DNA of 64,000 nt from an uncultured Gammaproteobacteria bacterium (GTDB lineage Bacteria; Patescibacteriota; Microgenomatia; UBA1406; HO2-37-13b). Both the position numbers and the translations under genes were made by a program. The notes beneath the pieces were generated by a model that was not told where the DNA came from, ran no database searches, and worked only from the letters and a program-made list of their open reading frames with translations. This document shows positions 33,628 to 37,782 of the stretch, one piece after another (the first letter of the stretch is position 1; the number at the start of each line of letters is the position of its first letter). The stretch spans positions 2,743 to 66,742 of the forward strand of contig CAYQYZ010000005.1 in assembly GCA_964422025.1 (NCBI GenBank). Reading direction: 5' to 3'.

Positions 33628-34860
33628 CTACTTTAACACACCAGATTGATATATTTTAATAAATGCCTGCCATGCCGTTTTTTGATCTTGTTTTACAAAG
33701 CTATTTATTGTCCTTGCTTGTTCAAAATATGCTCTTTTTTGAGCATTATCAAGAACGCGCCAATCTTCACCCAATTTTTTGCCAATCTGCTTTATACGCT
33801 CACGATTTTCTTTTATTGCTTGTAAAGAGTATGCAAGTGTTGTTGTGAGATCATAAATCCTAGAAGCGTCTTGAGTATTCATTGAAGCTAAATTAGTATA
33901 AAATCGATTTTCGAATGCTTCTTGTCGTCGAGTACGATTATCTTTTCGTTGTTGCTCAAAGGAAACGGGATTAGAAGTAGCTTGGTCTATTGTCTTAAAG
34001 TAAGCTTTTGTTGCGTACTTTGTTACAGTCCCTAGCCCAGTACTAGCTGAGGACCCTAGTGCGGCATTGAGAACATTTCCAGACACTGCTTTTGTAGCCG
34101 AAAGCGATGAGTTCATTTCCATTGGCTCATTGCTAATCACGGAATCTATTGCCGCTACCGAAAAATCTGTAGCATAACTCCCAACCGACCGCATAACTAC
34201 TTTCGACGCGGTTGTAGTAGCAATTTGTCCTATTTTTGCAGAAATTCCTGACCCGATTGCCCCGCTAGCTGCCGAAAAAAATACACTTTTCAAACTAATT
34301 TGACTGAAGTCCCTGCCTTGAACAAGCGTTTGGAAGCCAATATCTAGAGCTGCCCCCGCAATAGCTCCAACAATACACGTTGGGCAATTACCACTTGGAT
34401 CATTTAGCATTATAGGATTCCCTGAGACGTACGTATATCGAGTAGGACCTTCCACAGAGTCAGGTTGAATAAAAACACCTGTTTGCGGGTTATAAAATCG
34501 GGCGTTGTAATTATAAACCGAGGAGTCATTTGAAACCTTTCGTTGACCAGTATATTGCCTGGCTGATTGGACCAATGAAAGCGGAACAAATGACGACCCA
34601 TACGGATAATACGATGGAATACTCGCTACTTTTCCATTTTCATTAAGGACAAATTTAGTTGAAGAAAGATAATCTTGAATGAGAACTTTTTTAGTCACTT
34701 TATTATTTTTCTTTTCGACCTGTATTATTGTTTTATTCACGGGAACTCGAAAGCGGGTTGTGCGAGATTGAGCAAAGGAAGATGATGGAAAAAAAAGAGT
34801 AAGTATGAGTATGACGATAAAGCTTATATATATGTTTTTCATACCTTTACCCGCATTCAT
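33628..34860 (-). CDS. Standalone secreted Rhs-core protein with a Gly-zipper-rich C-terminal toxin candidate
   Basis: Signal peptide ...SSSFAQS. YYPYGS...QYTGQRKV.DSSVYNYNARFYNPQTGVFIQPDSV...GNPIMLNDPSGN (Rhs core). Then GAIAGAALDIG / AASGAIGSGISAKIG helices. Confidence 0.75.
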   Translation of the reverse strand: MNAGKGMKNIYISFIVILILTLFFPSSSFAQSRTTRFRVPVNKTIIQVEKKNNKVTKKVLIQDYLSSTKFVLNENGKVASIPSYYPYGSSFVPLSLVQSARQYTGQRKVSNDSSVYNYNARFYNPQTGVFIQPDSVEGPTRYTYVSGNPIMLNDPSGNCPTCIVGAIAGAALDIGFQTLVQGRDFSQISLKSVFFSAASGAIGSGISAKIGQIATTTASKVVMRSVGSYATDFSVAAIDSVISNEPMEMNSSLSATKAVSGNVLNAALGSSASTGLGTVTKYATKAYFKTIDQATSNPVSFEQQRKDNRTRRQEAFENRFYTNLASMNTQDASRIYDLTTTLAYSLQAIKENRERIKQIGKKLGEDWRVLDNAQKRAYFEQARTINSFVKQDQKTAWQAFIKIYQSGVLK

Positions 34861-36248
34861 TGCGGTTGTGCAAAATTGCTCCCAATCCCAAAAATTTTCG
34901 GTTTTTTTTCTAATAAGGTGTTATAAGGTACCAGATATGCGTCATTAACTTTTGGATTAGTGAACGTAAACTGTAAATGCTCCATCATTTCACTCATCGG
35001 TGCATCAAAATATAGTAATAATCCATTCCCATCTCCTGTATACCAGTTTCGTGCGCCTTGAAGATCTGTGGTGTACCATCTCGGGCTACCTCCCCCCATA
35101 CCCTCACTTGCAAGTTCCATAAACTTGGCTTTGTAACGATCGTCGACCTTGCCAAAAATTGCTCTATCCAACCTCGAAGAAATTTTACTTAGCCCTCTTC
35201 TAAGCCTCGACATGCTATGATTCCATGGCAATGCACTGTAGTCTGGCCACATTGCGCTAAATGCAGCAGCAGCTTGTTCTGTTGCCGGCTCCAAAAATTC
35301 TGAATTTACTGCTTTACCTTCAATACCCCTATAAAAACGCATCATGCCCTCTTCAAGGGGTGATACGGCTGAACTAAATGTAAAACCACCTGCGTCTGTA
35401 ACAAGCTGGCCCGCATGAAACTCACTCAACAAATCTTGCATAGCATTCATACTGCGCGCTGATCGACCCAATCCGCCTTTTATCGCTCCTCCAATCCTCA
35501 TCCCATCTCCCGGATCGGGACTCATCATTCCCATGGCAAATATACCCGCTGCTGCTCCACCTGATAGTGAAGCATATGCAGAATTAACTGATTCTGATCC
35601 TGATGTACTACCGGTAACTTTGTCCCCTATCCATGCGGCAACGCCCCCTATCCCCCCCGAAGCGGCTTCCGCTGCAGCCATAACCGTTCCAACTGATCCT
35701 AAACCCTCTTCTCCCATAAAATCTTCTCCTTCTGCTCCACCACACTGACCGACGGCTTTCCACAAAAAAGCAAGTGACTTGTCTTGTTGGCATAAGTCGT
35801 GTCCGGAAGGATCCGTGGCCTGAACTGGATTACCTGCTACGTAAGAATATCTTCCGGGGCCCCGAACTGAGTCGGGTTGGATAAATAACGCACTTGTGGG
35901 GTTGTAGTATCGGGCGTTGTAATTATAGACTGATGAGTCGTCCGACACTTTCCTCTGACCAGTGTATTGCTTATTAGCTACGTCGATGGAAGTTTGCTCT
36001 ATCGATGACCCATATGGATAATATGAAGGGTATGTAGACATCTCTCCTGACTCGCTAATAACTGCTTTCGTTGATGAAAGGTAATCTTTAATAAAAAACT
36101 TCTCGGCTACCGTATTGTCTTTCTTCTCGATCTGAATCGTGGCTTTTCCCACTGGAATTTGCAAGCGGGTGGTATGAGTTTGGGCAAAAATACGAGAAGG
36201 ATAGAGAAAAAGAAGAGAAATTATAAGTAGTATAAAGGTGTATTTCAT
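34857..36248 (-). CDS. Standalone secreted Rhs-core protein with a variable C-terminal toxin domain (type A)
   Basis: Signal peptide ...SRIFAQT. Rhs core ...NARYYNPTSALFIQPDSVRGPGRYSYVAGNPVQATDPSGH. Gly-rich pre-toxin segment. The C-terminal ~215 aa is homologous to the C-terminus of 36388-37782. ATGA overlap with the next gene. Confidence 0.8.
   Translation of the reverse strand: MKYTFILLIISLLFLYPSRIFAQTHTTRLQIPVGKATIQIEKKDNTVAEKFFIKDYLSSTKAVISESGEMSTYPSYYPYGSSIEQTSIDVANKQYTGQRKVSDDSSVYNYNARYYNPTSALFIQPDSVRGPGRYSYVAGNPVQATDPSGHDLCQQDKSLAFLWKAVGQCGGAEGEDFMGEEGLGSVGTVMAAAEAASGGIGGVAAWIGDKVTGSTSGSESVNSAYASLSGGAAAGIFAMGMMSPDPGDGMRIGGAIKGGLGRSARSMNAMQDLLSEFHAGQLVTDAGGFTFSSAVSPLEEGMMRFYRGIEGKAVNSEFLEPATEQAAAAFSAMWPDYSALPWNHSMSRLRRGLSKISSRLDRAIFGKVDDRYKAKFMELASEGMGGGSPRWYTTDLQGARNWYTGDGNGLLLYFDAPMSEMMEHLQFTFTNPKVNDAYLVPYNTLLEKKPKIFGIGSNFAQPQ
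35503..35732. repeat. 230-bp segment identical to 36974-37203
   Basis: Base-by-base comparison shows no mismatch. Encodes the Gly-rich pre-toxin segment EGEDFMGEEGLGSVGTVMAAAEAASGGIGGVAAWIGDKVTGSTSG...SPDPGDG. Confidence 0.95.
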
Positions 36249-36387
36249 ACAATATTAGGTTTATTTGCCGGAATTATTCAATCCCTGTGCTAATGGAAGC
36301 AAAAAGATATGTTTTAACACCCCATCTATATGATTCGCTCGATAAAAACTTACTACTTTTTTTGCAAAGATATGATTTATATTCATA

Positions 36388-37782
36388 TCATTGGGCCAAA
36401 ATTTTTGGGCCTGCGGAAAATAATTTAGGTGCAAAACGCTCCATTTCTTCAAATGGAATTCCGTATACATCGGGAACACGAGGATCCAAAACTTCTTTAT
36501 AATGTCTTGCCATTTGCGAGATTGGAGCATCAATATATAGCACTATCCCACCTTCTGCATATAAATCTCGAGCAACTGCATATGAACTAGTATAATGCTT
36601 ATCCTGCCCACCCATAACTTGAGTTACTAATCGTTTAAACTGAGAGCTTGAATGTCTATCATATAATCCAAATATTAATCTATCAATCTTTTCACCTCCG
36701 GGTAATATTTCACGCAAACGTGTTCTAAAATGACCAGCTGGAATAAGTGCTTTATTTATTCTATTATTATTGTGTGCCCTATATGCAGCCCATTGCTCAG
36801 CCGTTCCTGGACCTCGGAATTCAGCGTGGATAGCTTCTTTTTTTACACCTCTAAAAAACCGCCCATAACCTTCTTTTAGACCTTGTGGGACGTCAACACT
36901 ATATGCAAATCCATCAGCATATTGAATGCTTTTTCGTTCGCTAAATCGCGCTAACATTTTCCCCATTCTTCCACCATCTCCCGGATCGGGACTCATCATT
37001 CCCATGGCAAATATACCCGCTGCTGCTCCACCTGATAGTGAAGCATATGCAGAATTAACTGATTCTGATCCTGATGTACTACCGGTAACTTTGTCCCCTA
37101 TCCATGCGGCAACGCCCCCTATCCCCCCCGAAGCGGCTTCCGCTGCAGCCATAACCGTTCCAACTGATCCTAAACCCTCTTCTCCCATAAAATCTTCTCC
37201 TTCATCGCTTCCACATTGTCCCAGTGCATTCCAAAGGAATGCAAGATTCTTATCTTGTTGACATACATCATGTCCACTCGGATCAGTACCCTGGACTGGA
37301 TTCCCAGAAACGTATGAGTATCTTCCTGGACCTCGAACTGAGTCGGGTTGGATGAATAATGCGCTAGTTGGGTTGTAATATCGGGCGTTGTAATTATAGA
37401 TTGATGAGTCGTCGGAGACTTTTTTCTGGCCGGTGTATTGCTTATTGGCTACGTCGACAGAGGTTTGCTCTATCGATGAACCATATGGATAATATGAAGG
37501 GTACGTAGATACATCTCCTGCTTCGGTAATAACTACTTTTGTTGATGAGAGGTAGTCGTGCATAAGAAGTTTTTGTGTCAAAAGAGAATCTTTTTTTTCG
37601 AGCTGCATCGTTGCGCTGCCTAATGCGATTGTTAAACGAGATTTTCTAGTAGTACTTGATTGTGCGACGGCTTTTGGAGGCGCAAATCCCACAATGGATA
37701 TCGAATAAACGATGAGGACTAATTGAGAGATATATCTAAAAACAGAGTTATTCTTCCGAGTATTCATCTTCGTAGGCTCCAA
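36388..37782 (-). CDS. Standalone secreted Rhs-core protein with a variable C-terminal toxin domain (type A')
   Basis: Hydrophobic N-terminal segment ending ...AVAQS and the same Rhs core as 34857-36248. The C-terminal ~195 aa is a divergent homolog. Start overlaps the end of the Rhs shell gene by 35 nt. Confidence 0.8.
   Translation of the reverse strand: MEPTKMNTRKNNSVFRYISQLVLIVYSISIVGFAPPKAVAQSSTTRKSRLTIALGSATMQLEKKDSLLTQKLLMHDYLSSTKVVITEAGDVSTYPSYYPYGSSIEQTSVDVANKQYTGQKKVSDDSSIYNYNARYYNPTSALFIQPDSVRGPGRYSYVSGNPVQGTDPSGHDVCQQDKNLAFLWNALGQCGSDEGEDFMGEEGLGSVGTVMAAAEAASGGIGGVAAWIGDKVTGSTSGSESVNSAYASLSGGAAAGIFAMGMMSPDPGDGGRMGKMLARFSERKSIQYADGFAYSVDVPQGLKEGYGRFFRGVKKEAIHAEFRGPGTAEQWAAYRAHNNNRINKALIPAGHFRTRLREILPGGEKIDRLIFGLYDRHSSSQFKRLVTQVMGGQDKHYTSSYAVARDLYAEGGIVLYIDAPISQMARHYKEVLDPRVPDVYGIPFEEMERFAPKLFSAGPKILAQ
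36974..37203. repeat. 230-bp segment identical to 35503-35732
   Basis: See 35503-35732. Confidence 0.95.

Follow-up and report, generated by a model that had tools for sequence, protein, structure and literature searches.

In the BC component of Tc toxins (YenB with YenC1, YenC2 or YenC3; TcdB2-TccC3), the RHS cocoon is made of two polypeptides, and the piece that bears the core carries a hypervariable effector, often an ADP-ribosyltransferase (ART). Several alternative C pieces exist per shell and there are no immunity genes, the targets being non-kin. The C-terminal aspartyl-protease core seals the cocoon (PMC8765631), and a single YenB shell packages three YenC subunits encoded at separate loci (PMC11067744). 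Here, we describe a locus of similar design in a 64-kb stretch of DNA (the window: contig CAYQYZ010000005.1, positions 2,743 to 66,742, assembly GCA_964422025.1), which belongs to a candidate phyla radiation (CPR) bacterium near Candidatus Roizmanbacteria. All our statements on genome context are confined to these 64 kb. At 33.6-44.0 kb, the listing of open reading frames (ORFs) shows four consecutive genes on the minus strand: an RHS-repeat gene, called here the shell, followed by three shorter genes, tips A, B and C (Table 1). On balance, we lean towards the view that the three tips are alternative C-terminal ends of a two-piece, Sec-exported RHS toxin of a Roizmanbacteria-like CPR bacterium, and that they are effectors directed at non-kin, hence the lack of immunity genes.

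The locus departs from the Tc scheme in several respects. The split lies much nearer the C-terminus: the shell and core portion of a tip is only ~130 amino acids (aa) long, whereas that of TcC amounts to ~680 aa. Sec signals are predicted on both pieces, in what is a monoderm-like CPR cell; for TcB and TcC, assembly takes place in the cytoplasm. No TcA-type family was found among the large ORFs of the window (which contain dockerin, laminin-G or no domain), and the SpvB match of the shell was marginal (Pfam, E 0.0065, below the cut-off).

Two other groups of RHS toxins deserve comparison. Bacillus subtilis WapA is a single polypeptide, and its gene is followed by the cognate immunity gene, wapI. 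The WapA-WapI pairs of Bacillus and Streptococcus likewise involve a signal-peptide-dependent RHS-repeat toxin with a polymorphic C-terminal domain (CTD), whereas here shell and tip are separate genes without linked immunity gene. The Rhs effectors of type VI secretion systems (RhsA, Tse5, and the Rhs-TreTu/TreX of Salmonella and Xenorhabdus) share with the present locus the RHS shell, the DPxG core and the downstream arrays of alternative CTDs. Some of their CTDs are ARTs (TreTu, TreX), and these were among the best, albeit insignificant, structural matches of the domain called type-A below. However, there is no PAAR, prePAAR or VgrG context here. Moreover, the orphan cassettes of type VI systems usually have no start codon or signal peptide and each comes with an immunity gene, whereas the tips are complete ORFs with predicted export and no immunity gene.

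To our knowledge, how the episymbionts of the CPR (Patescibacteria) attack or manipulate their hosts is largely unknown, and the literature searched contained no account of RHS systems in CPR. The locus supplies concrete candidates for such a role. It also extends RHS biology: the cocoon is cut in two immediately ahead of the core, in a conserved manner and with a signal peptide predicted for each of the two pieces; linked immunity genes have been lost across the lineage; and a small effector family is present which is also found outside RHS contexts (in high-G+C and stand-alone proteins).

A shell gene and three core-bearing tips

The shell matched RHS_repeat (Pfam, E 3.7e-14) and YD_repeat_2x (NCBIfam), and its closest solved relatives in the PDB were the Rhs proteins Tse5 and 7q97. 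Neither the RHS-associated core TIGR03696 (NCBIfam) nor a toxin domain was detected in it, and the protein ends abruptly, at ...YYFGAYEDEYSEE followed by the stop codon. The core was found in every tip (TIGR03696, E 7e-15 for A, 4.7e-15 for B and 8e-15 for C). The tip cores end in DPSG, extended to DPSGHD in tip A and to DPSGNC in tip C, the whole set of tips reading DPSGH or DPSGN. Over their mature N-terminal ~130 residues, the tips align collinearly with 15 full-length RHS proteins, in the stretch of 100-125 residues that immediately precedes DPxG. Upstream of this part of the tips, a hydrophobic signal-peptide-like N-terminus with a conserved A-Q-(S/T) site was present in 11 of the 11 syntenic tips. 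Since each tip combines a predicted signal peptide, the last YD strands, a core plug, a cleavage motif and a cargo, the three genes do not encode bare toxin domains.

The three tip ORFs are intact and closely packed: the start of tip A overlaps the shell stop codon by 20 nt, and the tip B stop and tip C start share 4 nt (ATGA). A fusion of shell and tip A by frameshifting was considered and rejected: the signal peptide would end up inside the shell, and the scheme is inapplicable to tips B and C. After DPSGHD, tips A and B have a linker of ~97 aa (94% aa identity) which contains two Gly/Ala-rich hydrophobic helices and terminates at SPDPGDG; beyond that point, in the CTDs (type-A), identity falls to 35%. 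The two genes have 586 bp, linker included, at 88% nucleotide identity.

Linked immunity genes

A polymorphic toxin gene is almost always followed by a cognate immunity gene. The same rule was applied to all loci: an immunity-like ORF had to be on the same strand, to code for 60-320 aa and to start at most 70 nt from the toxin stop. By this measure, none of the 11 syntenic tips was followed by an immunity-like ORF. For the clade as a whole, the count was 1 of 19 tips, against 33 of 42 among the other RHS loci of the same scan (Fisher p = 5e-8, a value which overstates independence since the 19 tips are phylogenetically related). The single exception was an HD-domain gene in L026. The absence, more than a matter of chance, is also seen in three syntenic loci and in relatives that stand alone; it is a lineage trait and not a local accident. 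An earlier note on this DNA had claimed that the tips are packed too tightly for immunity genes. This was borne out, and the ATGA overlap, the 41-codon ORF in the sole gap and the convergent pectate lyase gene were all found again.

Other candidates for immunity were examined and set aside. The 41-codon ORF showed no DNA or protein similarity in the related loci or elsewhere in the window; it was rejected as a mini-immunity gene, being conserved nowhere, and is probably not a gene. The ORFs downstream of distant type-A homologs and of related tips (L006, L008, L026 and L027) were unconvincing, with no domain or only HD/HDOD. Toxins devoid of immunity proteins have been interpreted as aimed at distantly related targets (PMC3482391). 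In line with that interpretation, and with the Sec-type signal peptides and their A-Q-(S/T) site, the proposal of the earlier note that export or absence of the target would make immunity unnecessary is a reasonable one.

Exchange of C-terminal domains between related loci

Three syntenic loci (L001, L004, L005) retain the shell, the overlapping first tip, further tips and the convergent pectate lyase gene, the position of which is the same in L002 as well. The abrupt shell ending, the shell/tip split and the overlap of the first-tip start with the shell stop are kept in these three loci and in the more distant L012, which also has the shell-then-tip junction; in L018 the order is tip then shell.

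What varies is the CTD: at least seven types were counted in five loci, behind a core which is 73-94% identical and a linker which is 78-100% identical. The window has type-A, type-A' and tip C CTDs. Those of L001 (a Logan contig) are a HopF-type ART (Pfam AvrPphF-ORF-2, E 5.8e-11), an unassigned domain and an ortholog of tip C. L004 has a type-A CTD of the tip B type, a tip C CTD and a GNAT acetyltransferase (E 2.2e-6); L005 has an AvrPphF-like CTD, and another with R-S-E-like YRG/STSTS/ECE motifs; L013 has a PP2C phosphatase (E 1.9e-11). The R-S-E call for the second tip of L005 was made by eye, and neither a Pfam nor a PDB sequence match confirmed it.

The ratio of nonsynonymous to synonymous divergence (dN/dS) was between 0.05 and 0.39 across the core, linker and CTD regions; the tip genes are therefore functional and under purifying selection. 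Synonymous divergence was itself a mosaic. Between tip B and the first tip of L004, dS was 0.25 in the CTD (85% identical, dN/dS 0.39) and saturated in core plus linker. Between tips A and B, it was 0.23 in the linker versus 1.06 in the core. Such a pattern is the signature of cassette exchange combined with gene conversion, and it strengthened the view of these genes as polymorphic toxin cassettes, whose CTDs have been traded among syntenic genomes while core and linker were conserved.

Used as query in a metagenome scan, the tip core brought ~18 further short tips (430-480 aa), with 36-83 aa upstream of the core, including a strongly hydrophobic 15-mer. A few oddities were encountered among the related loci. 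L004 (CAYPSA010000003.1), which is syntenic and has 78-79% protein identity both with the window and with a Roizmanbacteria metagenome-assembled genome, is on a contig titled "uncultured Gammaproteobacteria"; the bin is probably mislabelled. In that locus only, a PIN-domain (VapC-like) gene (15208-15594, minus strand) lies between the last tip and the pectate lyase gene. The other oddity, L014 (metagenome contig C687J35174_10019242, 1-7947), consists of three tandem copies of a ~2.75-kb unit in which an AbiEii-type nucleotidyltransferase toxin gene (261 aa, Pfam E 1.3e-19) overlaps the start of a tip gene: a toxin of toxin-antitoxin systems is here paired with RHS tips, which is unusual.

The type-A C-terminal domain

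The CTDs of tips A and B share the motifs R(F)(Y/F)RG, Y-T-(T/S) and LY(F/I)DAP(M/I)S, as noted previously. Searches with single sequences and profiles in Pfam, NCBIfam, PHROGs and PDB sequences gave nothing useful, and a word-indexed protein homology search found no relative. An exhaustive profile search of 1.84 billion representatives returned six real relatives (E 2e-10 to 2e-5): one linked to an RHS core, two from high-G+C sources, one stand-alone protein of 164 aa (P0009) and two others. A seventh match, P0011, looks spurious. Invariant in 8 of 8 sequences were RxxRG, a Glu nine residues later, G..YxD, and the Pro of (I/V/L)-P-(F/Y/W). Judged by their sequences, the two type-A CTDs represent a new and small family (RxxRG...E...YxD...P), previously unannotated. 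In the two high-G+C, actinobacterium-like proteins (P0007 and P0008), the domain is C-terminal, behind Ala/Gly-rich hydrophobic segments and Pro/Ala/Gln repeats; no RHS core was found in them, so that the type-A domain serves in other delivery contexts too.

The earlier note had compared the motif spacing with that of R-S-E ARTs. The type-A domain has an aromatic-R-G motif followed by (Y/F)-(T/S), an A..YA helix and a beta-strand, an order that recalls the R-S-E mono-ARTs and HopF2/AvrPphF. The AlphaFold2 (AF2) model had a predicted local distance difference test score (pLDDT) of 77 and a predicted template modelling score of 0.69. Its best PDB fold matches were the mART domain of SdeA (E 0.29) and the Rhs ART toxins TreX and TreTu, and weak matches among viral models (BFVD) included ART-fold PARP-like, Tpt1 and DarT proteins. 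A profile alignment (hhalign) with the second tip of L005 placed YRG on YRG and (W/H)YT(T/S)..A..Y on STSTS..A..F (P 9e-4, probability 23%). In addition, the slot behind the linker that type-A fills holds the HopF-type ART in L001 and L005; hhalign found no relation between type-A and that AvrPphF-type sibling.

Several points weigh against the assignment. In contrast to the R-S-E and HopF2 ARTs, type-A has no invariant ExE or QxE: over the eight sequences, no invariant Glu was found at the ExE/(Q/E)-x-E position or in the C-terminal third, so the difficulty in placing the catalytic Glu reported from the first inspection was real. There is a candidate position on either side of the invariant Pro, and the acidic residue is found now at one, now at the other; tip B has neither, with Leu and Asn in their place (its L004 ortholog has a Glu there). 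The position aligned to S-T-S reads (Y/F/C)-(T/S/A)-x instead of a conserved Ser-Thr-Ser. The domain matched no hidden Markov model (HMM), and the Foldseek matches were all insignificant (best E 0.29 and 0.11). The R-S-E idea is thus weakly supported, by the ART folds among the Foldseek matches and by the profile alignment; the absence of an HMM match and of an invariant ExE speaks against it. In our estimate, a divergent enzyme of the ART superfamily is nonetheless the rather more probable identity of type-A. Between the R and S/T motifs, the domain contains a helical insertion of ~60 aa with low pLDDT, which in tips A and B exceeds that of the distant homologs by ~20 residues.

The tip C C-terminal domain

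The earlier note had described the C-terminus of tip C as rich in glycine-zipper helices, as in membrane-permeabilising effectors. In that form, the pore-former reading was not supported. Since two Gly/Ala-rich helices are also present in the linker of tips A and B, such helices are not peculiar to tip C. Its Gly/Ala-rich segments are hydrophobic (Kyte-Doolittle 1.2-1.7), but no homology was detectable between its hydrophobic half and the linker of tips A and B (BLASTP E 2.8), and the idea that the two are one module was rejected. The AF2 model is all-helical, with a long helical hairpin modelled at moderate to low confidence. With this poor model (pLDDT 47), the fold search gave generic helical hairpins only, and no sequence or fold match to any pore-former was obtained.

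The single HMM match was of another kind. HMG_box_2 was matched by 4 of 4 tip C members, one of them at only 46% identity, with 23.3-24.2 bits against a gathering cut-off of 22.4 and over profile positions 28-69 only. In the PDB, the matches to SRY/SOX proteins had E values of 0.008-0.05. The HMG-box-like motif reads IGKKLGEDWRVLDNAQKRAYFEQA... and is kept by every relative of tip C. Tip C has five close-to-moderate homologs, all of ~400-436 aa with the same architecture (the homologs named are P0001-P0004, L001_t3 and L004_t2), and dN/dS within the group was 0.17-0.34. We regard the motif as a borderline lead, short of an assignment. HMG boxes being essentially eukaryotic, a genuine relationship would be a hint that the target or the origin is eukaryotic. 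A match to a non-toxic domain, which the earlier note had named as contrary evidence, was obtained in partial form for tip C, and none was obtained for type-A.

A proposed two-piece toxin and its alternatives

In the scheme that we favour, the 2075-aa gene would supply a YD-repeat shell devoid of RHS core. Each tip would bring its own cleavable signal peptide, then a clade-specific segment of ~28 aa with the last YD strands, then the RHS-associated core (the putative aspartyl-protease plug) ending in DPSG. Tips A and B would add the conserved hydrophobic Gly/Ala-rich segment as a pre-toxin linker, and a variable effector domain would close each tip. Recombination in the conserved core and linker would allow effector domains to be swapped between strains. 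The type-A effector would act as a divergent ART-fold enzyme in the cytoplasm of the target cell; that of tip C would be a helical, partly hydrophobic domain. The targets would be non-kin cells, either the host of the episymbiont or competitors. As the effectors would leave unfolded or encapsulated, the producer would never meet active toxin, and with targets of this sort immunity genes would not be needed.

Shell and tip may come together once exported; alternatively, the tips may be active by themselves. A bolder version, which we offer as tentative and rather doubtful, is that, in a clade of CPR/Microgenomates bacteria, one Sec-exported shell is closed outside the cytoplasm by one or another of several Sec-exported plug-plus-cargo tips. 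The mature N-terminus of the tip (QSRTTRL...) would dock on the open end of the shell, and host-directed enzymes (RxxRG ART-like, HopF-like ART, PP2C, GNAT) would pass via the hydrophobic linker, with no immunity system. If shell and tips truly assemble after export, the assumptions made on cargo loading of RHS cocoons would have to change. Extracellular assembly would then be a new logic for RHS and Tc-type cocoons, and the first candidate mechanism of host attack for CPR bacteria other than Saccharibacteria.

Besides the reservations expressed above on the ART fold of type-A, a number of observations speak against the two-piece toxin. We know of no precedent for the completion of an RHS cocoon outside the cell by a separately exported plug-plus-cargo piece, and TcB and TcC, as already said, join in the cytoplasm. 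On the contigs seen, many related tips occur by themselves, at a distance from any shell gene (L011, L017, L021, L023), several of them among housekeeping genes; hence, tips may work without a shell. In the core, the first motif with an aspartate departs from the canonical form, reading ARYYNP and QPDSV in place of YYDP and DPxG. The immunity search covered 64 kb of the genome, that is, linked genes only. Lastly, toxicity, export, cleavage and assembly are all predictions derived from sequence.

The first alternative to be weighed is that the CTDs are not growth-inhibiting toxins. They could be secreted effectors or binding modules, such as protein modifiers or DNA-binding HMG-like domains, used for host manipulation or nutrient acquisition, in which case there would be nothing to neutralise. 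The HMG-box as sole HMM match of tip C (4 of 4 members), the effector-type enzymes among the sibling CTDs (HopF-like ART, PP2C, GNAT) and the position of the locus among genes for secreted proteins, including the pectate lyase and a dockerin protein, are in keeping with this reading. However, an RHS core followed by a variable CTD, together with cassette exchange, is a hallmark of toxin delivery, the HopF ART and GNAT families have toxic members, and the HMG match is partial (profile positions 28-69) with no confident model behind it. We consider this reading unlikely, though it deserves to be kept in mind.

Somewhat less likely still is that immunity genes exist elsewhere, unlinked or in poly-immunity loci, in which case the tips would be tightly packed because operons are compacted in the reduced genome of a CPR bacterium. 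Poly-immunity loci have been described (PMC3482391), the window represents only 64 kb, and some nearby ORFs are without family assignment, e.g. those at 29815-30933, 44937-46040 and 49357-50220. But linked immunity is the norm in the comparator RHS loci of the same scan (33 of 42), and the exchange of CTDs in four syntenic genomes brought no small ORF with it. Unlinked immunity would thus need a separate acquisition at each swap.

Built-in self-protection would require that the CTD hold a fused inhibitory or immunity module, for which the type-A helical insertion (~60 aa at low pLDDT, and longer in tips A and B than in distant homologs) or the C-terminal helical half of tip C, a protein divided into two distinct halves, could be proposed. 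Such a module, also envisaged by the earlier note, is very improbable: no likeness to any immunity family was found in Pfam, NCBIfam or PHROGs, the insertion is minimal in other type-A members (P0009, of 164 aa, for instance), and fused immunity is rare in RHS systems. The least probable alternative, by a hair, would see in the tips either silent orphan cassettes or the decaying remains of an rhs gene that was once complete, their immunity lost or unneeded; short ORFs with an RHS core are commonly orphan fragments, and some metagenome relatives look N-terminally truncated or frameshifted (the first copy of L014, L015, L027), but all tips of the four genomes have their own start codon and signal peptide, dN/dS is 0.05-0.39 with no internal stops, and the shell-tip split point is conserved in at least five loci.

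Features of the locus and neighbouring genes

The coordinates of the genes and of their parts are collected in Table 1. Promoter and terminator scans of the locus gave sites no commoner than in shuffled sequence.

Table 1. Genes, domains and motifs of the RHS locus (positions in the window; residues counted in each protein)
Feature	Position	Strand	Residues	Remarks
Pectate lyase gene	31943-33547	+		Pfam Pectate_lyase_4 E 1.5e-27; converges on tip C and bounds the locus
Tip C	33628-34860	-	410 aa	
Tip C, predicted signal peptide		-	1-31	
Tip C, RHS core	34390-34767	-	32-157	
Tip C, hydrophobic half	33961-34389	-	158-300	Gly/Ala/Ser-rich
Tip C, amphipathic helical half	33631-33960	-	301-410	With HMG-box-like motif
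Tip C, HMG-box-like motif	33631-33780	-	~355-395	
Tip B	34857-36248	-	463 aa	
Tip B, predicted signal peptide		-	1-22	
Tip B, RHS core	35802-36182	-	23-149	
Tip B, linker	35511-35801	-	150-246	
Tip B, type-A CTD	34860-35510	-	247-463	
41-codon ORF	36261-36386	-		Codons 36386 to 36264, stop 36261-36263; occupies the sole intergenic gap (36249-36387)
Tip A	36388-37767	-	459 aa	From ATG 37767 (likeliest start); listed ORF begins at TTG 37782
Tip A, predicted signal peptide		-	1-36	
Tip A, YD strands and RHS core		-	37-165	
Tip A, linker		-	166-262	Gly/Ala-rich
Tip A, type-A CTD	36391-36981	-	263-459	
Shell gene	37748-43975	-	2075 aa	RHS/YD-repeat; N-terminal hydrophobic signal or anchor
Shell insert	38129-38644	-	~170 aa	Cys-containing domain near the shell C-terminus, after a Pro/Thr/Ser-rich linker

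The Cys-containing insert of the shell is similar to residues 724-886 of a dockerin-bearing protein of 1374 aa encoded in the window (25562-29686, plus strand; 28% identity, blastp E 2e-13), and the two may represent a shared surface-display or binding module. The N-terminus of the pectate lyase closes with a ...EYGWII motif which resembles this insert by eye only; blastp does not confirm it. The window abounds in large secreted or surface proteins. One giant ORF (59299-63888, minus strand; 1529 aa) contains seven laminin-G/ConA-like repeats and has a match resembling the receptor-binding part of clostridial neurotoxins, and another (20776-25485, plus strand; 1569 aa) is without Pfam domain. 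A gene for tRNA-Leu(CAG) (31800-31884, plus strand) lies between a peptidyl-tRNA hydrolase gene and the pectate lyase/RHS locus; in L004 and L005, the corresponding interval holds a sigma-factor-like gene.

Finally, two antisense ORFs, both Pro/Ala/Ser-rich and on the plus strand, lie opposite the linkers of tip B (35533-35748, 71 aa) and tip A (36926-37261, 111 aa). An equivalent antisense ORF is found opposite the corresponding linker in L001, L004 and L005. These ORFs, which face Gly/Ala-rich linkers, are an artefact of codon composition.

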